Assembly: GCA_020833025.1 (NCBI GenBank)
Contig: JAJHRB010000018.1
Span: 1-25,200, forward strand
DNA: 25,200 nucleotides
Direction of reading: 5' to 3'
Source: Thermoproteaceae archaeon
Lineage (GTDB): Archaea > Thermoproteota > Thermoprotei > Thermoproteales > Thermoproteaceae
Shown here: one piece after another, positions 129-13,764 of the stretch
Layout: every line of letters begins with the position of its first letter
Numbering within the stretch: the first letter of the stretch is position 1
The notes under the pieces: generated by a model
Databases searched by the model: none
Told to the model about the DNA's origin: nothing
What the model saw: only the letters and a program-made list of their open reading frames with translations
Made by a program: the position numbers and the translations under genes

Positions 129-518
129 TCACATCTGCGGTATGTTCACCACTTTGAGAAACCTCAGCCCCCTCCCAGCGCGCGAGAGCCTGGAGACCAG
201 CTCGCGCACTCTGTCTCCGCCGCCGACTGTGTGAACTACCTCGAGGCAGAGTCTGTCCGTGAGGTGTATGTGCGTTGACGCCCTGATCATATCGCGGTAG
301 TCGTGCTGGACCTCGGCGAGAGACTTTGCAATCTCTCCCTTCTCGTGGTCGTAAACCAGTACTATGATTGACGCCAGCGGTGCCTGCACTGTCTCACTCA
401 CCTTCTCCGCTACTAGAGTCGCGATGAAGCGAGACCTGTTCACCTCGCCCATCGCTGCCATCATTGCCTCCATCTTCCTGTACAGCTCGTCGTCAAGTGC
501 TATGCTTATGCGCTTCAT
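129..518 (-). CDS. nikR: Nickel-responsive regulator NikR (RHH plus ACT-like domain)
   Basis: N-terminal ribbon-helix-helix MKRISIALDDELY...NRSRFI, then the Ni-site pattern YDHE...QHDY...STHIHL...CLEV. TATA box (minus-strand TTTTATTA) at 540-547. Confidence 0.9.
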   Translation of the reverse strand: MKRISIALDDELYRKMEAMMAAMGEVNRSRFIATLVAEKVSETVQAPLASIIVLVYDHEKGEIAKSLAEVQHDYRDMIRASTHIHLTDRLCLEVVHTVGGGDRVRELVSRLSRAGRGLRFLKVVNIPQM

Positions 519-2133: not shown

Positions 2134-2691
2134 TTAAAAGCTAGTGCGCCCCGCGGTGCCCGGCGCGGTCGCCCGCGGGCGCGCGCCCAGCGCCCTCTCG
2201 TAGCAGCGCAGTATCTCTGCCTCGGGGTCTCCTTCCCATCTGAGCACCAGCCCGTAGCCGGCCAGAATGTCCTCGAGCTCGCGCAGCACTGCCCTCGCGG
2301 CGGAGAGCACCTGTCTCGAGGGGGGCGAGAGCAGTTCGAGAGATGCCGGGCCCACGGCAACGAGGCGGGCCTCGACGTCCCTCCCCATGGCCCTTAGGTA
2401 GCCCACCAGGAGCGAGGGCGGAACTCTGTGGGCGTCCAGCAGCCTTGTCTCTCTCACCGTGAGCGAGCCCTCTATTCTCTCGACGGCCACCGCGCCTGGC
2501 GGCAGACTCGCATCGACATCGACGAACACTAGCACGTCGTAGTCAGACAGGAGGCCCAGGAGGCCCACCCCGTGGGCGTCGCCGTCGTAGACAAAATCGT
2601 TGAACTGCATCAAGTACTGGGCGAGGCACGAGCCAAAGCCGTCGTCGCCGTAAAGGGGGTTCCCGAGGCCTACCGCTAAAACTCTCGCCAC
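2134..2691 (-). CDS. Hydrogenase maturation endopeptidase (HyaD/HybD/HoxM family)
   Basis: GLGNPLYGDDGFG motif, VFVDV Asp and DAH His, so all three metal ligands are present; starts 6 bp after the hynL stop. Confidence 0.92.
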   Translation of the reverse strand: MARVLAVGLGNPLYGDDGFGSCLAQYLMQFNDFVYDGDAHGVGLLGLLSDYDVLVFVDVDASLPPGAVAVERIEGSLTVRETRLLDAHRVPPSLLVGYLRAMGRDVEARLVAVGPASLELLSPPSRQVLSAARAVLRELEDILAGYGLVLRWEGDPEAEILRCYERALGARPRATAPGTAGRTSF

Positions 2692-2697
2692 GCGGGG

Positions 2698-4617
2698 CTA
2701 CGGGGTGTAGACGTGCGACCAGATGACCTTCTCGATGACCTTGTAGACCCTCCCGCCCTCGCCTCTCGCCTCGAAGTGAACCGCGCACGCTATGCACGGG
2801 TCGAAGCTCCTGATGGCCCTCACGAGGTCCAGCCCCGTCCACTTGTCGGGCTCTATTTCCTCCGTGACGTAATTATTCAGCGCCGCCATCTCGAAGGGGC
2901 CGGCGCACTGCCCCGCGAACTCGCCAGTGCAGCGGTTGTTGCGCGGGCTCACGTTCGGCGTTGTCGGCGCCTCGTACTGGTAGTTCACCAGGATGCCCTC
3001 GCGCTGCACAAGCCAGTGCATGCAGCTGCCGCGCGGCACCTGCCACCAGCCGAAGCTGTAGCTGAAGCTCGGCCACCTGCCGTAGGACCACGGCCTCGAC
3101 GTCAGCACCATGCCCTTGTTTACGAGATCGAGAGCGTACAGCAGGTAGGCCCAGGCCACGGCGGCCACTAGGGCCAGGTGGACGGCCCTCGCGAGCAGGC
3201 GCTCCATTGTCGTCGAGTACTTCGGCAGCTTCCACTCTATCACGAGCTCGTCGCGCGTTCCGGGCGGCAGGTCGGGCGCCACCGTGTTGCCCGGCAGGTA
3301 TATCTTCAGCCTGCTGCCGTCGCTCTCCCACGCCTTGAAGCCTGCCAGCTCGAACTTAGTGGCGTGCAGCGTGTCGAGCCAGAGCTGTGATATAGGCCCG
3401 GTCTCCAGCGGCACAACCCTCCCGTCCTTCAGCACCACTCTCGGCTCGGCGTCCCAGCTGTACTTCGCGGCGAAGTTTATCGCGCCTGGTTTTGGCAGCG
3501 TCGTGCGGTTCCACATGTGGTATTTATAGAGCGGGTCCATGCCGTGCACAAGAGGCCTGCCGAGCGGGTCCTCCTTGATCCAGCCGGCCGGCGGCGCGAC
3601 GTTGGCCTTCGCCCAGTCCTCGTAAAACGCCGACTCGACGAACTCGACGTAGCCGAGCTGGATCTCAGTCACGTTCTTGCTGTAAATCTCACGGCCTATT
3701 GCAAGGCCTGGCTTTTCCGCGCGCGCGTTATAAGCCTTGTCCAGCAGCGCGTACATCTCCCTCCAGCTCCCCCTCGCCTCGTCTGCTATGCTGCTGTACA
3801 CCTCCGGGTGGTCAGCCCAGCCGCTTGCGTGCATTACCGGCGGGTCATGGGTCTTGCCCTGCGTCAGCGCGTACGGCTCGCCCGCGGGCGTGGTCACGTG
3901 GTCGCGGTAGAACTCGTAGAGGTCCTGCCACACGGCCCACACGAACTTGACCCACGCCGTCAGAGCAGTGAGGCCGGAGTACAGCTCGAGCAGCATCGCG
4001 GGGAGGTTGGTGATGTCTGTCGTTATCCCGCCGGGCACCAGCACGTTCGGGTGGGGCGCCCTGCCGTAAATCAGGGACCCTATCCTCCTCGACTCCCTCT
4101 GGTACTTGACTGCGAGCTGCCAGATCCTCCCCACGACCGGGTTCATGTCTCTCATTATGTCTGCTATGGTCCTGTAGCCGTGAATGTTGGAGTACTTGGC
4201 GGGGGTCTCCCGCGCGGCGCTCCAGACAGACGGCGTGAGCTTGCTGACGATGAGCTCGCTGTAGTCGGGCCCCTCGAGCAGGTTGAGGATAAGCGGGTGG
4301 TCGTACAGGTACTCGCCGAATGCGTACCCAAGCGCCCTGAGCGCAATGCCCATCGGGTAGGGCGTCATGCCCGCCGCGGCGTCGTTCGCGGCAGTTGAGG
4401 CGTTCGCGTGCGCTGCTCCGCACACGCCGCAGCTCCTCGACGTTATCTGTATTGCGTCCTCGGGAGGCTTGCCGCGCAGGATGACCTCAAAGCCGCGAAA
4501 CATCATTGTAGAGGTTCTCGCCTCGCGCACGCGCTTGGTGGAGGCGTCAATGTCGGCGTACAGCGCGAGGTGCCCTTCAATTCTCGTTATGGGATCTATC
4601 CATAACTTCACTGACAT
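2698..4617 (-). CDS. hynL: [NiFe]-hydrogenase large subunit (group 1, crenarchaeal 1g-like)
   Basis: DPITRIEGH; L1 RSCGVCGAAH; L2 SFDPCIACAVH followed by a 25-residue cleavable C-terminal extension. Confidence 0.97.
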   Translation of the reverse strand: MSVKLWIDPITRIEGHLALYADIDASTKRVREARTSTMMFRGFEVILRGKPPEDAIQITSRSCGVCGAAHANASTAANDAAAGMTPYPMGIALRALGYAFGEYLYDHPLILNLLEGPDYSELIVSKLTPSVWSAARETPAKYSNIHGYRTIADIMRDMNPVVGRIWQLAVKYQRESRRIGSLIYGRAPHPNVLVPGGITTDITNLPAMLLELYSGLTALTAWVKFVWAVWQDLYEFYRDHVTTPAGEPYALTQGKTHDPPVMHASGWADHPEVYSSIADEARGSWREMYALLDKAYNARAEKPGLAIGREIYSKNVTEIQLGYVEFVESAFYEDWAKANVAPPAGWIKEDPLGRPLVHGMDPLYKYHMWNRTTLPKPGAINFAAKYSWDAEPRVVLKDGRVVPLETGPISQLWLDTLHATKFELAGFKAWESDGSRLKIYLPGNTVAPDLPPGTRDELVIEWKLPKYSTTMERLLARAVHLALVAAVAWAYLLYALDLVNKGMVLTSRPWSYGRWPSFSYSFGWWQVPRGSCMHWLVQREGILVNYQYEAPTTPNVSPRNNRCTGEFAGQCAGPFEMAALNNYVTEEIEPDKWTGLDLVRAIRSFDPCIACAVHFEARGEGGRVYKVIEKVIWSHVYTP

Positions 4618-4638: not shown

Positions 4639-4670
4639 TTATTAAATTGCCTTTCCGGGCGCGCGAAAAA
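4639..4670 (-). promoter_or_regulatory. hynL promoter: TATA box plus dyad motif TTTTC-N8-GGAAAG
   Basis: Minus strand reads TTTTTCGCGCGCCCGGAAAG-gcaa-TTTAATAA; TATA at -22 to -29 and motif at -34 to -53 from the ATG. Confidence 0.7.
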
Positions 4671-4684
4671 GAGGAGGGGCGGGT

Positions 4685-6016
4685 TCACTCGAGGGCCTTC
4701 GCCACTAGGTTCGATATGTGCTCAACCCCGACGTCGACTTTATGGAACTTGAGGCCCGCTCTCAGCGTCTCGATGCACGCCGGGCACGCCGTTACTAGCA
4801 TCTGCACGCCGGACTTTCTCACGTCCTTAACCTTCTTTAGCATGGCCCTCCTAAGCGCTTCTTCCGTCTCCCTTAAGAATGCCGACTCCCGCGGGCTCAC
4901 CCCCGCCGTGATGTCAGTGCCCAGAAGCTGCGAAACGCGCCTGTAGAACTCCTCGGAGAGGAATATAATGCCCGCGCCGCCGCTGCAGCACCAGCTCCTC
5001 TCGCCGTGGCCGGGGAGGTCGCGGTAGTCTGTGAACTTCCTGAGGACCTCTCTCGGCTCCTCTATCACGCCGCCCCTCCTGGCAAGGTGGCAGGGGTCGT
5101 GCCACGCGACCCTGATGCCGAGCGGCTTGAGCCTCAGCCTCCCCTCTCTGACGTACTCGGCGAAGAGCTCAATCACGTGAAGCACTTGAAAGCCGAGGGG
5201 CCTCCTCAGGATATTTGTCGCCTCGAATCTGAACTGCGGGTAGACGTACCCGCCGTCAATGAAGACGGCGAGGCGCGGCGACAGCGACTCGGCGTACGCC
5301 ACGAGGTCCTTGATTGTGTCCCTCTGCGCCTTGACGTCGCCAGCAATGGCGCCGAAGGGAGGCCTCACGCCGAACGGCACCTCGGGGAGCGTGAAGTCCT
5401 CCCCGACGCGCTTGAGCACCTTGATCGTGTTTAGCACTGCGTCCCGCGTCAGCGTGATGTCCATGAGCGTCACGGCGAGGAGGACCCTGGCGCCCCGCCT
5501 GCCGACGGGCGCCTCTGCCTCCTTCAAGAACGCCTCCCAGGCGGACTTGACGGCGGGGTGCCCCTTGTAGAGCCCGTCTCTCTCAAACCGGGCGAGCACC
5601 TTCATTATAGTTGGCGCGACTCCCGCCTCGTACAGCATCTGCCTGAGCGCCATCATCATGGCACCGCTGTCAATTCCGTACATGCATGCTATGTAACAGA
5701 AGCCGCAGTCAGCGCACCTGTACGCGCTCCTCAGCAGCTCCCACAGCTCCTCCTCCGTCCTCGGCATCCTGGCGCCGACTACCCTGCCCGCGAGGATTCC
5801 TGCCGCCGTGTACCTCCTCCTCAGAATCTGCCTGACGAGCTCTGCCTTCTCGACGGGCGCGAACTCCTCGTCAACGTAGTAGTACGGGCACCAGGGAGCG
5901 CAATTCCCGCAGCCCACGCACGACTCCATGTAGTGCAGCGTCACGGAATTAAGCCTCACGACAGGCAAGTGAGCAGGCGGCAGCACGGTCGGCACGCGCG
6001 GGTATATTGTAGTCAT
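4685..6016 (-). CDS. isp2: Isp2 / HdrD-DsrK-like iron-sulfur subunit
   Basis: Two ferredoxin-type motifs CVGCGNCAPWC and CADCGFCYIAC; C-terminal CCG domain (HDPCHL, CCSGG, TACPAC); first CCG domain degenerate; lies between isp1 and hynL. Confidence 0.9.
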   Translation of the reverse strand: MTTIYPRVPTVLPPAHLPVVRLNSVTLHYMESCVGCGNCAPWCPYYYVDEEFAPVEKAELVRQILRRRYTAAGILAGRVVGARMPRTEEELWELLRSAYRCADCGFCYIACMYGIDSGAMMMALRQMLYEAGVAPTIMKVLARFERDGLYKGHPAVKSAWEAFLKEAEAPVGRRGARVLLAVTLMDITLTRDAVLNTIKVLKRVGEDFTLPEVPFGVRPPFGAIAGDVKAQRDTIKDLVAYAESLSPRLAVFIDGGYVYPQFRFEATNILRRPLGFQVLHVIELFAEYVREGRLRLKPLGIRVAWHDPCHLARRGGVIEEPREVLRKFTDYRDLPGHGERSWCCSGGAGIIFLSEEFYRRVSQLLGTDITAGVSPRESAFLRETEEALRRAMLKKVKDVRKSGVQMLVTACPACIETLRAGLKFHKVDVGVEHISNLVAKALE

Positions 6017-6037
6017 TGCAGTGGGCTGCTGCCCACC

Positions 6038-6069
6038 TAAAAAAGCCAGCTTTCCGCGCGCGCGAAAAA
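6038..6069 (-). promoter_or_regulatory. isp2 promoter: T-rich TATA box plus dyad motif
   Basis: Plus-strand CTTTCCGCGCGCGCGAAAAA (6050-6069) is 19/20 identical to 4651-4670 and is also at -34 to -53 from the ATG. Confidence 0.7.
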
Positions 6070-6085
6070 TGGGAGCCTGCGAGCT

Positions 6086-6853
6086 CTAGACGCCCCTCTT
6101 GATCACGTTGTCATACCACTCGTGGAGCTTGCCGTACCAGTAGCCCCAGAGGAAGTGGAAGTACTTTGTGAACGGCATTACCGCGACGAACGCCGCGGCC
6201 GAGGTTATGTGAAGTCCCAGCAGGAGCCTGTACCAGCAGACGCCGGGGGGATAGTGGTGCGCCGCGAGCCAGCCGGTCAGCACTATCAACAGCAGGAGAG
6301 GCCAGACGAGGAGGTCCCCCGTCCTGACCCGTCTGTGCCCCCTCGCCTTCTCTACGAACTTCTCCACCATCTTGTACACGATGCCTATCGTGGCTATGAC
6401 TGCCAGAATGTCGCCGTTCAGCACCGAAGTCAGGGGTCCCCAAATTGTGGTCACGCGCTGGACCACGCCGGTCGGCGTCGTAACCTGCAGCGTGCCGGTT
6501 ATCGCGCTTATCGGTATTGCGAGGGGCCAGAGAATGCCGTAAGGCGGTATTATCTGCTGTATGTAGGCTATGTGCTGGGCGAGGAGGAAGACGAGCGGGT
6601 GCAGTGCTGCTAAGTGCAGCACTATCAGGCCGGAGAATGCCTCGACGGCGTTTCCCCTGAATGCAAGTATTATCGGGTTCAGGAATGTCATTATCAGGCC
6701 CTTTATGACGTGCCCAATTCCGCGCGGCCTCCTCACGTAGAACCCGCTTCTGTACACGAAGACGTAGCGCAGCAGCCTGTATGCCGCGCCGACGGCAAAC
6801 AATCCCAGAGCGGCGGGGAATAGGACGTAAATTGCGAGCTCCAGCAGCTCCAT
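6086..6853 (-). CDS. isp1: Isp1 / NarI-DsrM-like membrane cytochrome b subunit
   Basis: Several hydrophobic helices with intramembrane His residues (VLHLAALH, AQHI, GLHI) and the PFTKYFH motif; starts 4 bp after the hynS stop. Confidence 0.9.
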   Translation of the reverse strand: MELLELAIYVLFPAALGLFAVGAAYRLLRYVFVYRSGFYVRRPRGIGHVIKGLIMTFLNPIILAFRGNAVEAFSGLIVLHLAALHPLVFLLAQHIAYIQQIIPPYGILWPLAIPISAITGTLQVTTPTGVVQRVTTIWGPLTSVLNGDILAVIATIGIVYKMVEKFVEKARGHRRVRTGDLLVWPLLLLIVLTGWLAAHHYPPGVCWYRLLLGLHITSAAAFVAVMPFTKYFHFLWGYWYGKLHEWYDNVIKRGV

Positions 6854-6857
6854 CGCC

Positions 6858-8177
6858 CTACTCCCGCTCCCTCGCCCTCCTGGCGAACAGGTAAGCGCCC
6901 ACCGCGCCGAGCACGACTCCGGCGCCCGCGGCTGCCGCTATTGTGGACACCGGCGGCAGCGTCGGGGCGGGCAGGGCCTTCCAGAACGGCTCGTAGGCGT
7001 CGGAGAATCCCGGCATCGTGCAGCCTATGCACACGCCGCCGGCCCTCACGGGCCCTCCAACCCCGGCAATCCAGCCGACCTTGTTCCACGGGCAGTTCGA
7101 GATCGGCCCCTTGCAGCCGACCGAGAATAGGCATTTGTAGTCGCTAGAGCCCGGGTACTCCCTGAGGTCGCCGGCAGTGTAGGCGCCGGCACGCGGGCAC
7201 TGCTCGTGCACCGTGCGCCCGTATATGAACCTAGGCCTCGCGTACTCGTCGAGGAAGTCCTCGCGCCTCAGCACGTGCGGCTTCAGTATCCCGGCCACGA
7301 CGAGCACGGCGAGCGCGAGAGTCCTCACTATGGCGTTGCCGTTGACGGGACAGCCGGGCAGCGCTACTGCCGGCTTCGAGGTCTTCAGGTCTGGCTCTCC
7401 CCCCTCGTCTATGTACTTGCGGAAGGGCAGTACCTCTGGCTCAAAGTAGGACTGGTGAATCATGCCCCTGTACCCGCGGATTGGATCATCAAAGAAGCCG
7501 AGAGAGCCCGTCGGCGAGGGGGACCAGCTCGGCGGCGTGAAGCCGGGCGGCGGCTCGAGGACCTTATTAGCCGGCATCCCGCCGTAGCTGGAGCAGTTGC
7601 CGACGGTCACCACGGCGAGCGCGTTCTTGAGCAGGTGCTTGAGCCACTCGGCGCACGTCCTGTGCCCGACGACGCAGTAGTAGCCGCCCCTCTCTCTGAT
7701 GTTCGTGCCCGGGATGTCGGCCTCCTGCGGGAAGGAGCCCTCGAGCACCAGGACGTACGGCCCGTACTTGCCCTCGGCAATCTCCTCTAGGTGCCTGTCG
7801 GCGTCAGAGACTCCCTCAACTGCCTGTGTCTCCAGATAGTCGTAGAGCCTCTTCCTGTCGGCAACGTCGGAGGGATCCCTTATGTGATAGGTACCCCACG
7901 GCGGGAGGACTGTGTCGTGGGCCAGCAGGACGACAGTCCCCGGCGGGACCAGCGGCGTCGTCCCGAGCAGCACGTCCTCGAGAGTCGGGTCCGTCGCCTG
8001 GATTATTGCAGTGGTGTCGCCGGTGCAGCTCTGGGCCTCGAACCAGACGACCTTGGCTAGACCCTCCCTCACCGCAGCCGACGCCGCCCTCACTATGGCG
8101 CTCCAGTTGAGGGCGGAGAGAGCTGCGGCGAGAGACCCCGCCCTTAGCAGGTCGCGCCTGGTTATCGCAAGCCGCAC
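6858..8177 (-). CDS. hynS: [NiFe]-hydrogenase small subunit with Tat signal and C-terminal membrane anchor
   Basis: TRRDLL twin-arginine signal; EAQSCTGD, VGNCSSYGG and LPGCP (proximal); HEQCPR...CLFSVGC (distal); CKGP..NC...CIGC (medial, Pro so 3Fe-4S type); C-terminal hydrophobic helix. Confidence 0.96.
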   Translation of the reverse strand: MRLAITRRDLLRAGSLAAALSALNWSAIVRAASAAVREGLAKVVWFEAQSCTGDTTAIIQATDPTLEDVLLGTTPLVPPGTVVLLAHDTVLPPWGTYHIRDPSDVADRKRLYDYLETQAVEGVSDADRHLEEIAEGKYGPYVLVLEGSFPQEADIPGTNIRERGGYYCVVGHRTCAEWLKHLLKNALAVVTVGNCSSYGGMPANKVLEPPPGFTPPSWSPSPTGSLGFFDDPIRGYRGMIHQSYFEPEVLPFRKYIDEGGEPDLKTSKPAVALPGCPVNGNAIVRTLALAVLVVAGILKPHVLRREDFLDEYARPRFIYGRTVHEQCPRAGAYTAGDLREYPGSSDYKCLFSVGCKGPISNCPWNKVGWIAGVGGPVRAGGVCIGCTMPGFSDAYEPFWKALPAPTLPPVSTIAAAAGAGVVLGAVGAYLFARRARERE

Positions 8178-8183
8178 GGGTGG

Positions 8184-8795
8184 TTACCGCGGCCGCTTAA
8201 TAAATACCCTTTCCAGCTTTGAGAAAATCTCGGCAAGGCGCCCGCAGTCGGGGAAGAGCTCATATCTCTCCCCGCCGCATAGATTGCAGCGCGCTGCGAT
8301 GACATTCCCGTGGCCGAAGACGTACATGTTTCCGTCGATGCTCACGGCGCACGCGCTGCAATAGCTCAGGAACAGTCTCGCGGCGAGGGGCTCCGCGGGA
8401 GTGCCCTTAAACTGGCGGAGCTCCGGTACATTAAACAAGCGGATGGTATCTGCAAGAGAGCTGACGGGAAGCGAGAGAATGTCTGCAAACTTCTCGCAGA
8501 CGCGCTCGAGGTACAGCATCACGGCATCCTCGCTGGAGCCGTACATGCGCGCGAGAAGCGCGAGCGCTGCGGGATCGCCCAGCGACGCCATGGCTATCAA
8601 GCCCCGCTCGGTTACCTCGTAAAATCCGCAATCGGCGCAGAGCAGGTCCAGCGCCGCTGCTTGCTTTACTTTTCTCCATGCCGTTGCGAGGGGCATACGA
8701 GTTTTCTTGTAAATTGAATAGAATCTTGCCTTTCCTATATCTAGAGATGCTCTGAGTATCTCCACAAGCTTCTCGTCAATCTTGCAGGCTGGCAT
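8184..8795 (-). CDS. Winged-helix DNA-binding protein with nine Cys, putative transcription regulator
   Basis: HTH-like RFYSIYKKTRMPLATAWRKVKQ followed by a wing ending YEVTERG; three CxxC pairs (CADC, CSAC, CNLC). Confidence 0.75.
   Translation of the reverse strand: MPACKIDEKLVEILRASLDIGKARFYSIYKKTRMPLATAWRKVKQAAALDLLCADCGFYEVTERGLIAMASLGDPAALALLARMYGSSEDAVMLYLERVCEKFADILSLPVSSLADTIRLFNVPELRQFKGTPAEPLAARLFLSYCSACAVSIDGNMYVFGHGNVIAARCNLCGGERYELFPDCGRLAEIFSKLERVFIKRPR
8197..8227 (-). promoter_or_regulatory. hynS promoter embedded in the 3' end of the upstream wHTH gene
   Basis: Minus strand reads TTTTC-TCAAAGCT-GGAAAG-ggta-TTTATTAA: the same half-sites, 8-bp spacer and 4-bp gap to TATA as the hynL promoter. 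Confidence 0.6.
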
Positions 8796-9267
8796 AAAGC
8801 TCCTCTACTCTCCTGACGACCTCCTCCAGGCACTTGGCGCCGCCCTCTGACAGACCCGCGCGGGGGCCCGGATCCGGCGGCTCGCACTCAACGACGTAAA
8901 TCTCATCGGCGTGTCGCTCTAAGTAGCTCAGCCCCGCGAGCAAGTCCTCGAGCGAGATCCTGCCCTCAAGCGAGGGCCTTATCGCGTCGAGAACCTCCCA
9001 CGGGCTGGCCGGCGCTCTCGGCGAGAGCCTATACACCTCCACCGTCCCCGGCCTCCTGCCGCGCGCCACCGCGCCGACGAGAATGAGCTTTCTCGGTGCG
9101 TGACTCCTCAAGTCGTCCAGCATTGTGAAGACGTCGCCTGACAGCTCGATGGCGGGATATCCCCTCTCGCGCAGTACCTTGAGCGCGTAAAGCCCAATTG
9201 CGAGGTCGCCGCCCAGCAGGTACCCGACGCATGCTATTAACACGCCGCCTGGCTCGGGCTGCCCCAT
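8776..9267 (-). CDS. Hydrogenase-maturation-protease homolog lacking metal ligands
   Basis: Start reassigned to ATG 9267 (TATA-like TAATAAAA at 9295-9302). The family pattern is recognisable (VGYLLGGDLAIG; LILVGAV..G..PGTV; VVECEP; GLS), but the E16/D62/H93 equivalents are missing. Confidence 0.8.
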   Translation of the reverse strand: MGQPEPGGVLIACVGYLLGGDLAIGLYALKVLRERGYPAIELSGDVFTMLDDLRSHAPRKLILVGAVARGRRPGTVEVYRLSPRAPASPWEVLDAIRPSLEGRISLEDLLAGLSYLERHADEIYVVECEPPDPGPRAGLSEGGAKCLEEVVRRVEELYASLQD

Positions 9268-9308
9268 GCTCTCTAGCGGGGCCCCGTAGAAAGCTTTTAT
9301 TACGCGAT

Positions 9309-11570
9309 TTACTGTATGGTATATGTAAGAAAGTATATCTGGCCCAGCGCGAGCCCTCCGTCGCCCGGCGGCACCCTCCTCGGCAGGAGAACCCCGGCGC
9401 CGCACCGGGCTGCCGCGTCCCTTACCCCACGCACGATGTAGCTGTTAACTGCAGCGCCCCCGCCCAGCAGGATGTAGCGGTCTCCCTTGCTCTCCGCAGC
9501 CTCGCAAGCCCTCTCGCCGAGAATCCGGCCGAGCGCCACCTGCGCGGTGTACGCCAGGTCCTCCCGCCTGGCCTCCCGCCGCGCGTAATCCACGAGCTCC
9601 CCGAAGAGCTCGACTTGATCCCGGGCGTGCGTCTCGAGCTCGCGGCCGCCCCGCGCCGCGGCCTCCAGCTTCATTGCCGGCTCCCCCTCGTACGTCCTCT
9701 CCCACGCGACTCCCAGCAGCACGGCAACGGCGTCCAGAAACCTCCCGGCGCTTGACGTGAGAATGCGCGGCGACTTGACCTCCCTCATTACCGCGTTGAG
9801 CTCCGCGGCGCCTCCCGGCAGGTATCTCGCCGCCCTCTCCACAAGCTCCTCAGCATCCCCGCAGCACTCGCTGAGGTAGGCTATTGCCATTCTCGCCGGC
9901 CTGTATGCGGCCAGGTCGCCGCCGGGCATAGGGACGTATCTTAAGTGCCACGCGCGCTCGTACATCGCGCCGTCGACGAACAGCACCTCGCCGCCCCACG
10001 CGCTCCCGTCCTCGCCGTAGCCCACGCCGTCTATCGCTATTGCAACGAACGGCTCGTCGATTCCGAGATCCGCCGCCGCGGCTAGTGCGTGCGCGTGGTG
10101 GTGCTGTATCTGAAAGACCTCGGCGCCGAGCTCCTCCGCCCACTCCCTGCACAGCCTCACCGAGCGGTAAGCGGGGTTCTTGTCGCACGCGAGCACGGGC
10201 TCCCTGACACCGTAAACCGACGCGAACCATCTGAGCTCTCTGTCCAGGTACTCGTAGGCCTCGAAGCTGTCGAGATCGCCTATGTACTGCGTGAGGACGG
10301 CCTTGTCCTCCACCCCAATGGCGCCGGCCGTCTGGAGGTCCCCCCCGAACGCAACTGCATGGCGCTTGAGCGCGCGCCTCATTCTAATCCACGCGGGCGC
10401 GTAGCCCCTCCCCCTCCTGATCATTACAGGCTCTCCATCCGTGAACCTCATCACGCTGTCGTCGACTCTGTGCACGATCTCGAGCCCGTGATCGAGCACG
10501 TAGTCAACTACTCTGCCGAGCTTCTCGAGCACGCAGCTGAGAGTGTAACACATTGGCTCCCCCTGCACGTTCCCGCTGGTCGCAATGACGAACTTGTCGC
10601 GAGTCTTGGCGAGGAGTAAGTACTGCAGGGACGTATACGGCAGGAACACGCCCTCCATATCGAGTCCCGGCGACACGAGCGGCGAGACGGGACTGTCATC
10701 GCGCTTGGGCAGCAAGACGATGGGCCTCTGCGGCGACGTTAAGAGCTCGGCGGCGCGGCCGTCGACGTGCGCCAGGCGCCTCGCGACGTCAACGCTGAGC
10801 GCCATGACCGCGAAAGGCTTCTGGGGTCTCCTCTTCCTCCTCCTGAGCTCGGCGACCACGCCGCCGTCTGTTGCGAGCGCCATTATATGGTAGCCACCCA
10901 CGCCCTTGACGGCAACGATGTGACCCCCGTCTATCAGGCGCGCCGCCTCAGCTATCGGGTCCCCGTCCGGGATCTCTGCGCCGCGCCGGTCCAGAAGCCT
11001 GACCCTCGGCCCGTCGCGCCTGCACGAGATTCCCTGGTAGTAGTACCTCCTCACGCCGCCGGCCAGCGGGTCGCCGTACTCCCTCTCGCACTCGTGACAC
11101 ATTGGGAATGCGCGCCAGCTCGTGTTCTCCCTGTCGTACGGCAGCTGTGCGATGATGGAGAACCGCGGCCCGCAGAAGCTGCAGGAGTTGAACGGGTAGT
11201 CCCGCCTCCTCTCCTCGCCGCTCTCGAGAACCTCGCGCAGACAGTCATCGCAGATGGCGAGATCCGGCGGTATCATCGACGGCCTTTTCCGCGCCATCTC
11301 GCTGCCCTCAATTCTGAACCCCGCCGCGCCGAGCGGCTCGACCTCCTCGACGCGGACCTCCTCGAGCCTTATTACGGGCGGCGCGTTGGCAAGAAGGGCC
11401 CTCATGAACTCGCTTGCCCCGCCCCCCTCCACGTAAATCTCCACCTCGCCGCCGCCCAGGTTCTTCACGTACCCGCTCACTCCCAGCTTGTCCGCCAGCA
11501 TCTTGACGTAGGGGCGGAAGCCGACTCCCTGCACTATACCAACAGCGTAAATGCGGTAGGCCCTGGTCAC
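9309..11570 (-). CDS. hypF: Carbamoyltransferase HypF
   Basis: True start is GTG 11570, overlapping the hypC stop (GTGA). GIVQGVGFRP acylphosphatase domain, zinc fingers, YrdC-like VKGVGGYH, QHHHAH, DGVGYG and PPGDGGLALGQ. Confidence 0.97.
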   Translation of the reverse strand: MTRAYRIYAVGIVQGVGFRPYVKMLADKLGVSGYVKNLGGGEVEIYVEGGGASEFMRALLANAPPVIRLEEVRVEEVEPLGAAGFRIEGSEMARKRPSMIPPDLAICDDCLREVLESGEERRRDYPFNSCSFCGPRFSIIAQLPYDRENTSWRAFPMCHECEREYGDPLAGGVRRYYYQGISCRRDGPRVRLLDRRGAEIPDGDPIAEAARLIDGGHIVAVKGVGGYHIMALATDGGVVAELRRRKRRPQKPFAVMALSVDVARRLAHVDGRAAELLTSPQRPIVLLPKRDDSPVSPLVSPGLDMEGVFLPYTSLQYLLLAKTRDKFVIATSGNVQGEPMCYTLSCVLEKLGRVVDYVLDHGLEIVHRVDDSVMRFTDGEPVMIRRGRGYAPAWIRMRRALKRHAVAFGGDLQTAGAIGVEDKAVLTQYIGDLDSFEAYEYLDRELRWFASVYGVREPVLACDKNPAYRSVRLCREWAEELGAEVFQIQHHHAHALAAAADLGIDEPFVAIAIDGVGYGEDGSAWGGEVLFVDGAMYERAWHLRYVPMPGGDLAAYRPARMAIAYLSECCGDAEELVERAARYLPGGAAELNAVMREVKSPRILTSSAGRFLDAVAVLLGVAWERTYEGEPAMKLEAAARGGRELETHARDQVELFGELVDYARREARREDLAYTAQVALGRILGERACEAAESKGDRYILLGGGAAVNSYIVRGVRDAAARCGAGVLLPRRVPPGDGGLALGQIYFLTYTIQ

Positions 11571-11902
11571 GTCGCGGCGCGAGCCCCCGCCCTCAACTCC
11601 TCGGCTATTTTCAGCACGCGCCCCACCTCCTTCTCGATCTCCTTGGCGGCCGCCTCCGGGTCCTCCCCGGCACGTGCGGCAAGCTCCACTGCCATTTGCT
11701 TCCACGCCTCTATGCTCTCCCGCAGAGCGCTGAGATCGACCCTCGCTATAATCACGCCGGCGTGCACCATCACGATGTCGCCAGCGCCGACCTCCCCCTC
11801 GTCTATGCCCAGGAGCGCCGGCCTTTCAATGCCATCGCCGACGTCGACGTAGGCAACACCGCCCTCTACTCTCCTGACGACGGCTGGCACCGCCCAGCAC
11901 AT
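11567..11902 (-). CDS. hypC: Hydrogenase maturation chaperone HypC
   Basis: MCWAVPA start (ATG 11902) and VMVHAG motif; long helical C-terminal tail. Confidence 0.95.
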   Translation of the reverse strand: MCWAVPAVVRRVEGGVAYVDVGDGIERPALLGIDEGEVGAGDIVMVHAGVIIARVDLSALRESIEAWKQMAVELAARAGEDPEAAAKEIEKEVGRVLKIAEELRAGARAAT

Positions 11903-11906
11903 AGCC

Positions 11907-13115
11907 CTAAACAATGCCGGCGTCTCTCGCTACGTCGGTGGCGAGACCCCCGCCGCCGAAACGCGCCCAGATGGCACAGGTGCCCTCCATGGACACCATG
12001 CACGGCCCGACGGGCCTGTCGGGCGTGCATGCTCTCATGAACAGCGGGCAGTCAGTAGGTCTTGCCTTTCCCAGCGTCACCTCGGCGCACCTGCACGTGC
12101 GCGGGAGGTCGTACTGCCACCTCTCCGGCGCGAGCTCGGGAACGCTGAAGTACTTCATTGCGTCATGCTCTGCAAACGCGCCTCTAAGTCTCAGTCCGCT
12201 CTTCGGCAGGAAGCCTATGCCGCGCCAGGCGTCGTCAACGGCCTCGAATACCGTGTACATCGAGGACAGCGCCCTGAGATTTCCCTCCCACCTGACGGCC
12301 CTGGCGTACTCTATCACGACCTTGCTCTCGCCTCTCCTCAGCTGGCGCAGTATCTCCGCAATTGCTGTCAGCACGTCGTGCGGCTCGAAGCCCGCCACGA
12401 CGACCGGAATCCCGTACTGCTCCGCGACTGGGACCCACGCCTTGCCGCCGACAATTGTCGAGACGTGCCCCGGCGCTATAACGCCCGAGACCGGATAATC
12501 CGTGGGCTTTTCTTGCATCATGTCCAGCGCGTAGAACATCGCCGGAGGTGTGAGCTTGACCAGGCTCATGAGCTTTAAATTCGGCGGCACGAGACCTCTC
12601 AACACCGCCTCCGAGTACCCCGGCGCCACGGTCTCGAAACCTATGCCGACGAACACCGATGGCTTGCCGTGCCCCCTCGCGTCGATTATTGCCTGAATGA
12701 AGCTCTGGACCACTCTGACGTCGCCCCCGAGCGCCCTCGCCTCGGCGAGCGACCGCGCGCCATTAACGCCTCTCAGCGCGGGCACTCTGAACACGTCGCC
12801 ATAAGTATACACCACCACGCCCTCGAGAGCCAGCTTTATTGCCTCCTCCACGAAGTAGGAGGGAGTGACGCACACAGGGCAGCCTGGCCCCGCCACGAGC
12901 TCGACGCTCTTAATGCCGGACGTCTCCAGCACGCTCCTGATGCCGTAGTGAACGATCGTCCACTCGTGCGTCCCGCAGAAGTCCATTATTTTATAAACGT
13001 AATGGGGGTCTCTCCTGGCGAGATCCTCGGCGTATTTCTTGATGTAGCCGACGAGCACGGATGTGACGGCGCTTCTGCGCCTGAACGCCGTCTCAATTGC
13101 GGATATGCCGCTCAC
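11907..13115 (-). CDS. hypD: Hydrogenase maturation protein HypD
   Basis: CGTHE, GPGCPVC, GFETVAP, PGHVS, GFEP and CPLF...C...P.GPCMVS.EG.C motifs. Start placed at GTG 13115 from TATA spacing; upstream ATGs are possible. Confidence 0.95.
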   Translation of the reverse strand: MSGISAIETAFRRRSAVTSVLVGYIKKYAEDLARRDPHYVYKIMDFCGTHEWTIVHYGIRSVLETSGIKSVELVAGPGCPVCVTPSYFVEEAIKLALEGVVVYTYGDVFRVPALRGVNGARSLAEARALGGDVRVVQSFIQAIIDARGHGKPSVFVGIGFETVAPGYSEAVLRGLVPPNLKLMSLVKLTPPAMFYALDMMQEKPTDYPVSGVIAPGHVSTIVGGKAWVPVAEQYGIPVVVAGFEPHDVLTAIAEILRQLRRGESKVVIEYARAVRWEGNLRALSSMYTVFEAVDDAWRGIGFLPKSGLRLRGAFAEHDAMKYFSVPELAPERWQYDLPRTCRCAEVTLGKARPTDCPLFMRACTPDRPVGPCMVSMEGTCAIWARFGGGGLATDVARDAGIV

Positions 13116-13164
13116 GGGAAATCGGTCAGGCGAGTATTTTTGTGCTCTCCACTCCGGGCGCGGC

Positions 13165-13764
13165 ATGCCCAGCGCTGGCGGCAAGAGCGCGGGGCTGCGG
13201 CTTAATTACGGCGGCGTCGTGCTGTCGCTGAGGGACTACGCGGGGGCCGTCGCTGAGTACCGCGGCGAGAGTCTCTGCATTGACGTGCTGAGGCCTGACT
13301 GCCACCACGTCTTCTACACGCACGGCCACGAGAGACACTACGGCGGTTACGCCGGGGAGTTCCACGCGCCGTTCCGGGGGAATGTAATCGCGGGGACTGT
13401 AGTGAGGGCAGGGCCCTTTAGAGTTCTCGTAATTGATGCGTACAATATCACGAAGGTGGCAGGCGGGCGCCCCGTCCATAGCAGAGGAGAGGGAGTCGGT
13501 TACGTCATCGAGGTGGCCGGCATTGTCATGTACCACGCCGGCGACACAGATCTAACACCCCAGATGCTGGAGGTCGGGAGGCATGACATAGCGCTGCTGC
13601 CAATAGGGGGCGACGGCGTGATGACGCCGGAGGAGGCTGCCGAGGCGGTAAAGCTGCTGAGGCCCAAAATTGCAATTCCGGTGCACTTCACAGAGGCCAG
13701 GCACTATGTCAAGTTCCGTGACATGGCGCAGCCCTACGCCCAGATAATGAACATCAAGTCGTGA
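13165..13764 (+). CDS. Metallo-beta-lactamase-fold hydrolase (COG2220/UlaG-like)
   Basis: THGHERH, YHAGDT, LLPIGG..VMTPEEA and IPVH motifs; start uncertain. Confidence 0.88.
   Translation: MPSAGGKSAGLRLNYGGVVLSLRDYAGAVAEYRGESLCIDVLRPDCHHVFYTHGHERHYGGYAGEFHAPFRGNVIAGTVVRAGPFRVLVIDAYNITKVAGGRPVHSRGEGVGYVIEVAGIVMYHAGDTDLTPQMLEVGRHDIALLPIGGDGVMTPEEAAEAVKLLRPKIAIPVHFTEARHYVKFRDMAQPYAQIMNIKS

Follow-up and report, generated by a model that had tools for sequence, protein, structure and literature searches.

In the first 25,200 nucleotides of contig JAJHRB010000018.1 from a Thermoproteaceae archaeon (GenBank assembly GCA_020833025.1; the whole stretch is referred to below as the window), the NiFe hydrogenase genes hynL, isp2 and hynS are each preceded by the same inverted repeat, TTTTC-N8-GGAAA, which lies directly upstream of the TATA box. 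Our preferred explanation, held with a confidence a little above even, is that this dyad serves as operator for a dedicated regulon of hydrogenase and nickel genes in the Thermoproteales, and that its factor is most likely the 203-amino-acid (203-aa) protein encoded directly upstream of hynS. We class the element as a putative archaeal operator with a candidate new regulator family. What results is a precise 18-bp site, about 50 natural variants of it, and a candidate factor that is open to direct expression and test.

The dyad at three hydrogenase promoters

The first-pass annotation of this DNA had placed TTTTC-N8-GGAAAG before hynL, isp2 and hynS, and a pattern search recovered all three copies at the positions given there, on the minus (coding) strand; the TATA boxes were read directly.

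4651-4669, minus strand: dyad before hynL, with a GC-only spacer (18-bp TTTTC-N8-GGAAA at 4652-4669), from the pattern search
4639-4646, minus strand: TATA box of hynL, TTTAATAA, 21 nt before the ATG at 4617, direct reading
6050-6068, minus strand: dyad before isp2 (18-bp core at 6051-6068), from the pattern search
6037-6044, minus strand: TATA box of isp2, TTTTTTAG, direct reading
8209-8227, minus strand: dyad before hynS, within the last codons of the 203-aa gene (18-bp core at 8210-8227), from the pattern search
8197-8204, minus strand: TATA box of hynS, TTTATTAA, direct reading

As annotated, the hynL and isp2 copies are identical at 19 of 20 positions (4651-4670 against 6050-6069) and both lie at -34 to -53, counted from the first base of the ATG start codon (4617 and 6016), while the spacer of the hynS copy is unrelated to the other two. 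A gap of 4 bp between dyad and TATA box had been claimed for all three promoters; it is 4 nt at hynL and hynS and 5 nt at isp2. The start codon follows 19-21 nt past the TATA box, and the dyad lies about 51 nt upstream of each of the three starts. We infer that the TATA-to-start distance of hynL is typical of leaderless archaeal promoters, and Pyrobaculum transcripts are, we assume, leaderless. Reading of the promoters of hypD, nikR and a 92-aa open reading frame (ORF) found no dyad, in agreement with the annotation, and the hypD promoter of the window has a TATA box.

The right half in this genome is the GGAAA variant, while the symmetric core in relatives is TTTTC-N8-GAAAA. The spacers of the hynL and isp2 copies (4655-4664 and 6054-6063) are pure G+C with alternating CG, a feature of this genome only; relatives have mixed spacers and a right half of TGAAAA, not GGAAAG. 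GC drift (the genome is 62.6% GC), gene conversion between the two sites, or a change in step with the factor could each account for the GC-only spacers and for GGAAAG.

Matched exactly, the pattern occurs three times in the genome (1,557,889 bases in 126 contigs, 94% complete), each time at a hyn promoter, so that the motif is not one that is common at random genomic positions. Base composition alone gives, by arithmetic, about 0.24 expected matches per genome, and among 100 dinucleotide-shuffled versions of the window none contained a match. If one mismatch is tolerated and a TATA-like box demanded, a single further place comes up, C37:13231, which is unrelated and precedes a tRNA-guanine-transglycosylase-like ORF. 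The right half stands at the position of the transcription factor B recognition element (BRE), a purine- and A-rich hexamer that adjoins the TATA box on its upstream side, and GRAA followed by a TATA box was found at 52 genomic places, with TTTTC at -13 only at the three hyn sites. The motif is thus probably not just a genome-wide BRE preference or a terminator, since the in-register left half is unique to hyn and the hynS copy is intragenic and does not follow a stop codon. A matrix built from the relatives' sites only ranks the hynS site as the top match in the genome (21.9 bits) and scores the two GC-spacer sites of the window low, because its weak spacer preferences are overfitted. Neither the matrix scan nor the one-mismatch scan found a further convincing target in this genome.

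Conservation among relatives

Orthologues of hynS were taken from 11 close relatives (55-71% identity) and their loci gene-mapped; further copies of the dyad came from four more genomes and from the family-f2 genomes G027 and G099. We identify G002 as Pyrobaculum oguniense TE7 and G116 as Thermoproteus sp. CP80, and take other relatives to be P. arsenaticum, P. islandicum, P. neutrophilum, P. calidifontis, T. tenax, T. uzoniensis and Vulcanisaeta distributa. Across Pyrobaculum, Thermoproteus and their relatives the dyad occupies the same promoter position, with the consensus TTTTCA-N6-TGAAAA in about 50 copies from 16 Thermoproteales genomes that carry an intact or broken 203-aa gene, plus one relic.

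The half-sites are held far more tightly than what lies between them: the information content is 1.4-2.0 bits per half-site column and 0.03-0.8 bits per spacer column (29 sites). Among 44 tabulated sites the inverted half-sites read TTTTC-N8-GAAAA or GGAAA, a few with N9, and the distance from dyad to TATA box is 21-25 nt in every one. The start codon, as picked by script, lies 50-52 nt from the dyad in 35 of the 44, and some of the other nine have wrongly picked starts; this fixed distance fits leaderless promoters. In orthologous promoters of 15 other genomes the half-sites are kept and the spacer drifts, which is the pattern expected of a protein site. The annotation's view of a protein-bound operator beside BRE and TATA is accordingly supported, the more so as the hairpins that the dyad could form are weak.

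An orthologous dyad stands before hynS in all 15 other genomes that have the 203-aa gene, before hynL in 12 other genomes and before isp2 in five Pyrobaculum genomes. Two gene orders occur. The Pyrobaculum type runs 203-aa gene, hynS, isp1, isp2, hynL, with dyads before hynS, isp2 and hynL (isp2 of G017 excepted), and the Thermoproteus type runs 203-aa gene, hynS, a 340-aa membrane gene, hynL, with dyads before hynS and hynL.

The hynS copy lies within coding sequence, where the encoded amino acids vary among relatives and the DNA half-sites are constant. Read in frame, the hynS dyad and its TATA box make up the final 14 codons of the 203-aa gene (I-F-S-K-L-E-R-V-F-I-K-..., window 8184-8230, minus strand), and for that reason the conserved C-terminal F-x-x-L-K-x-x-F-I tail of the family probably reflects promoter constraint and not protein function. 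In most relatives the 203-aa gene even extends beyond the hynS start codon. It appears that an entire promoter can lie within the coding end of the gene for its presumed regulator.

Two genomes depart from the pattern in ways that look like regulon decay. In G017 (locus L028, G017:C1:1461586-1469881), probably P. calidifontis by our assumption, stop codons and a change of frame interrupt the 203-aa gene, and isp2, which here overlaps isp1, no longer has a dyad promoter; dyads remain at hynS and hynL. G022 (L161/L162, G022:C12:20800-24992) has no hynS, hynL, 203-aa gene or strong NikR, and its frameshifted hypD keeps an intact promoter of dyad plus TATA box, a relic of the lost hydrogenase system.

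The bare pattern TTTTC-N8-GAAAA occurs at 3-11 places per genome in five complete relatives, against 1-4 for the control. We attribute the places outside hyn to chance, because those that were read, about half, are intragenic, have no TATA box and are shared only by two very close genomes; requiring a TATA box removed them.

Regulon content

With the TATA box required, the dyad marks 38 distinct places in 29 genomes of the family, against 6 for a reversed control, and 35 of the 38 are promoters of hynS, isp2, hynL, hypD, hypA or cbiM. The dyad precedes hypD-hypC in G002, G005, G006, G014, G023, G116 and G119 (and the frameshifted hypD of G022), hypA-hypB-...-hypE in G116, cbiM-type nickel/cobalt energy-coupling factor (ECF) transporters (cbiMNQO) in G002, G005, G023, G116 and G119, and a NicO nickel permease in G119. 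Membership differs between genomes around a core of hynS and hynL. By the genes that follow it, the dyad is the mark of a predicted hydrogenase and nickel regulon, one that would tie hydrogenase structural genes, maturation genes and nickel import together. In the present genome, whose assembly is 94% complete, tblastn found no homologue of cbiM or hypA.

Two further matches seem to be unrelated promoters, one of a PadR-like gene (G008) and one of a TFS-like gene (G010). The G008 gene (in locus L071, G008:C1:775090-778119), of the PadR family, is preceded by a perfect 16-bp palindrome, TTTCCGATATCGGAAA, and a TATA box; the palindrome is probably that gene's own operator and a chance match to the pattern.

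The 203-aa candidate regulator

The 203-aa protein matches no Pfam family at E up to 10. Its AlphaFold2 (AF2) model has a pLDDT (predicted local distance difference test) of 89, and residues 1-65 form a winged helix, a three-helix bundle with a beta-hairpin wing, that matches the winged-helix domains of Zur, Fur, MarR, MecI and RPA32 at Z 8-10 (root-mean-square deviation 1.4-2.0 Å over 57-60 residues). Foldseek gives probabilities up to 1.0 to MarR, IclR, AspA and PhiH1-repressor-like proteins, and profile matches to PH0140, AspA and F-93 stand at E of about 0.05. The remainder consists of five helices, a small beta sheet with C146, C149, C170, C173 and C184, and a terminal helix. A Foldseek search with the whole protein returned nothing at E up to 0.001. 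For the C-terminal part modelled alone (pLDDT 86) the best match across the PDB reaches Z 4.3, none reaches Z 5 and the match is not a RAM domain; a shape search of the ESM Atlas gave no usable match.

The gene is found in 16 of the 120 genomes of the class, all of them Thermoproteales (the broken copy of G017 is counted and a weak match in G036 is not), and without exception it is the gene immediately upstream of hynS, in the same orientation, with the dyad at hynS in 16 of 16. Eight genomes outside the order (family f15 and G073), with a hydrogenase of about 47-52% identity, have no 203-aa protein and no dyad at the hynS and hynL promoters that were read; their hydrogenase genes form hynS-hynL operons, and we read these genomes as Thermofilaceae-like. 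G036 has hyn and no dyad at hynS. The first-pass annotation had put forward the protein encoded at 8184-8795, next to NikR, as a candidate binder, and had noted that archaeal activators bind at such a position. A winged helix and strict synteny uphold it as the candidate, whereas it is by conjecture that we take it to bind the dyad and perhaps to activate.

The orthologue in G024, a genome that we take to be T. tenax, is 37% identical to the 203-aa protein. In the T. tenax genome paper, the legend to Figure 2 labels the gene between hypZ and hynS, a position that matches the 203-aa gene, as 'lrp, Lrp/AsnC family' (PMC3189178). That paper marks the gene as a regulator and describes neither a binding site nor a regulon (PMC3189178). 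Membership in the Lrp/AsnC family is not supported by the 203-aa protein beyond its winged helix.

Predicted transcription units of the hyn cluster

The minus strand carries every relevant gene of the hydrogenase cluster, and gene identities on the window were obtained by Pfam domain search.

11907-13184, minus strand: hypD (Pfam)
9309-11705, minus strand: hypF (Pfam)
8776-9405, minus strand: protease-like ORF, overlapping the 203-aa gene
8184-8795, minus strand: gene of the 203-aa candidate regulator, winged helix (about residues 1-65) and Cys-rich C-terminal part
6858-8177, minus strand: hynS, NiFe hydrogenase small subunit, with a twin-arginine translocation (Tat) signal (RRDLL motif; Pfam PF14720, PF01058)
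6086-6853, minus strand: isp1, after hynS and without a promoter of its own
4685-6016, minus strand: isp2, HdrD-like Fe-S protein with its own promoter (Pfam CCG and Fer4 domains)
2698-4617, minus strand: hynL, NiFe hydrogenase large subunit (Pfam PF00374)
2134-2691, minus strand: maturation protease homologue, directly after hynL (weak HycI match)
129-518, minus strand: nikR, at the end of the hyn cluster (Pfam NikR_C 1.4e-21 and RHH_1)

The start of isp1 lies 4 nt past the hynS stop, and reading of the region before it revealed neither dyad nor TATA box. Since hynS, isp2 and hynL each have a dyad and a TATA box and isp1 has none, the cluster reads as three predicted units, hynS-isp1, isp2 and hynL-protease. 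The earlier proposal that the hyn genes are separately promoted and co-regulated gains support from this arrangement, with a TATA box and dyad for each unit in the same register among relatives, and the Pyrobaculum hyn 'operon' would then be three co-regulated units, each with its own promoter.

At hypD, the first 26 or so residues of the window's protein do not align with relatives (the alignment begins at residue 27), and the longest ORF has a TTG start 20 nt after a GTAATTAAG box (window 13100-13190, minus strand); the true start and promoter of hypD are therefore uncertain here.

A model for co-regulation

We propose that each of the units hynS-isp1, isp2 and hynL-protease would be transcribed from its own TATA promoter, with a start site giving leaderless or nearly leaderless mRNA. 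The 18-bp dyad immediately upstream of the TATA box would then span about -52 to -35, with its centre near -43.5 and its right half at the BRE. A dimeric factor would read both half-sites and control the recruitment of TFB and TBP at the three promoters together; that factor would be the winged-helix, Cys-rich 203-aa protein, in the final codons of whose gene the hynS operator and TATA box lie. Among relatives its control might extend to hypDC, hypA-hypB, cbiMNQO and nicO, and it might be triggered by a metal or redox signal that the conserved cysteines detect. The right half may double as the BRE, and the T-run may also end upstream transcripts. A factor bound on the BRE could either recruit TFB and TBP or keep them off. 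As to the direction of control, we lean, by a slight margin, toward activation over repression.

A bolder version, which we advance tentatively and at well below even chances, is that the 203-aa protein founds a new family of sensor-regulators. Its Cys-rich domain, joined to the winged helix, would read nickel, Fe-S or hydrogenase-maturation status, perhaps together with the ligand-less protease homologue of the overlapping gene, and the protein would switch on leaderless hydrogenase, maturation and nickel-uptake promoters through TTTTC-N8-GAAAA; the operator in its own last codons would couple its expression to its target.

Weighing the alternatives

Several observations weigh against the assignment to the 203-aa protein, or lessen the weight of what favours it. 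No genome separates the gene from the hyn cluster, and co-occurrence of gene and site therefore cannot be distinguished from co-occurrence of site and target. The genomes are kin, from about four genera, so that the counts are not independent and overstate the independence of the copies; against this, the randomised spacers and flanks imply that neutral positions have had time to drift despite the kinship. All three right halves in the window are the non-consensus GGAAAG and two of the spacers are GC-only. The overlap of the right half with the BRE position makes repression as feasible as activation. NikR lies within 10 kb of hyn in most dyad genomes. Before the operon that encodes the 203-aa protein no dyad was found, and it is partly this missing autoregulatory site that would fit a different arrangement, in which the dyad is a real operator, its factor is encoded elsewhere and the 203-aa protein has another role, in maturation or as a co-factor. 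Such an arrangement would agree with a winged-helix fold that is generic and with a link between protein and site made of synteny and fold. We nevertheless think it rather unlikely: no further factor whose phyletic pattern fits was seen, and genomes that lack the 203-aa gene lack the dyad too, one relic excepted.

The main specific rival is NikR, encoded nearby, and the dyad might be its operator, with nickel-loaded NikR tuning hydrogenase, maturation and nickel-uptake genes to the nickel supply. The regulon is nickel-centred (NiFe hydrogenase, hypA, hypB, hypDC, cbiMNQO, nicO), and dyad genomes have a strong NikR (76-88 bits), the exceptions being G118 (a cut match of 45 bits), G099 (67% complete, none found) and the relic-only G022; the nikR promoter of G024 even carries a half-degenerate copy, ATGTC-N8-GAAAA, with a TATA box. 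Against this, G013 and G021 have NikR at 78-82 bits and no 203-aa gene, and there the dyad is no more frequent than the control (8 against 11, and 1 against 5), with zero cases of dyad plus TATA box. The cbiM promoter of G021, 3 kb from nikR, has no intact dyad, G036 combines NikR and hyn with no dyad at hynS, and the window's own nikR promoter is without one; the nikR promoters that we read have no clear common motif. The geometry also differs. The characterised NikR operators are about two turns long, GTATGA-N16-TCATAC in E. coli and with N11 in H. pylori, the wide gap between half-sites arising because two ribbon-helix-helix (RHH) dimers sit at opposite ends of the tetramer, whereas the present site is 18 bp with a gap of N8. 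We regard NikR as an improbable reader of the dyad.

It is a good deal less probable still that no dedicated factor is involved, the T-run being an oligo-T terminator of the upstream gene, GAAA(A/G) the BRE and the symmetry incidental. The isp2 and hynL copies do begin 14-17 nt past the upstream stop codon, with a T5 run, and GRAA with a TATA box is common, as the 52 places show. Yet about 50 sites strictly keep the C that follows the T-run, the G that precedes the A-run and the N8 register, the hynS copy is intragenic and has T4 only, short of the five or more T expected of such a terminator, and the left half is present only at hyn, hyp and nickel promoters. That the dyad works instead at the RNA level, as a hairpin that serves the processing or stability of read-through transcripts, we consider hardly credible. 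The arms can pair, and the two GC-spacer copies reach -5.5 and -10.2 kcal/mol at 37 °C, but these hairpins are no better than those of shuffles (z 0.3 and -1.2), the hynS copy forms no such hairpin, and the relatives' hairpins of only -2 to -5 kcal/mol are negligible at growth temperature, Pyrobaculum and Thermoproteus being hyperthermophiles. The dyad, moreover, lies upstream of its own TATA box.

Relation to known systems

The operator that we propose resembles the archaeal upstream activating sites of Ptr2 in Methanocaldococcus, TFB-RF1 in Pyrococcus, GvpE (the upstream activating sequence, UAS, of haloarchaea) and the Lrp-type LysM and BarR in Sulfolobales in being a short dyad that abuts BRE and TATA at a fixed distance. 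These systems use a winged-helix or helix-turn-helix (HTH) factor, and TFB-RF1, Ptr2 and GvpE recruit TFB or TBP. The present case differs from them in that its sequence is unrelated, the 203-aa candidate has neither a RAM domain nor a Pfam family, the right half lies on the BRE itself, and activation is conjectural. SurR of the Thermococcales is a possible functional analogue, being an archaeal winged-helix regulator with a redox-responsive cysteine switch that acts at several hydrogenase-related promoters; unlike the case of SurR, there is no detectable relationship in protein sequence, and phylum, hydrogenase type (here an H2-uptake Isp enzyme) and targets differ. The SurR box GTT-N3-AAC does not occur within 110 nt upstream of hynS, isp2 or hynL, and the annotation had rightly set it aside. 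With the bacterial NikR operators the system would share the control of nickel uptake and NiFe enzymes, and a nikR gene stands at the end of the cluster; it differs in its spacing (N8 against N11-N16).

We found no description of the motif in the literature; an earlier prediction in comparative NikR work or in regulon databases is possible. To our knowledge no regulator of H2-uptake hydrogenases has been described in the Crenarchaeota (Thermoproteota), and we know of few archaeal regulons that are defined with both a site and a candidate factor.

Further elements in related genomes

G036 (34% GC, Thermocladiaceae-like) has an excess of TTTTC-N8-GRAAA, which comes from AT-rich coding sequence and from two arrays of a shorter palindrome, unrelated to hydrogenase genes. 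The arrays (L163, G036:C1:281300-283400, and L166, G036:C14:6000-8200) hold several copies of a 19-bp palindrome, ATTTTCA-N4/5-TGAAAAT, within 300-400 bp and look like a clustered binding array or an origin-like element.

Most genomes of the two main genera also encode a second, weak NikR_C-like protein (24-34 bits, an open frame of about 125-210 aa; G000:C58:1858-1965), and its presence does not depend on hydrogenase genes. Many cbiM promoters (L117, L118, L121, L124) carry a second element, AGTAAAT-(0-3)-GTAATA(C), between the TATA box and the start codon, irrespective of whether the 203-aa gene is present; it is possibly the real NikR box or else the target of a different repressor. Its only match in the genome under study lies in the AT-rich promoter of the operon of the protease-like and 203-aa genes (9298-9313, minus strand).

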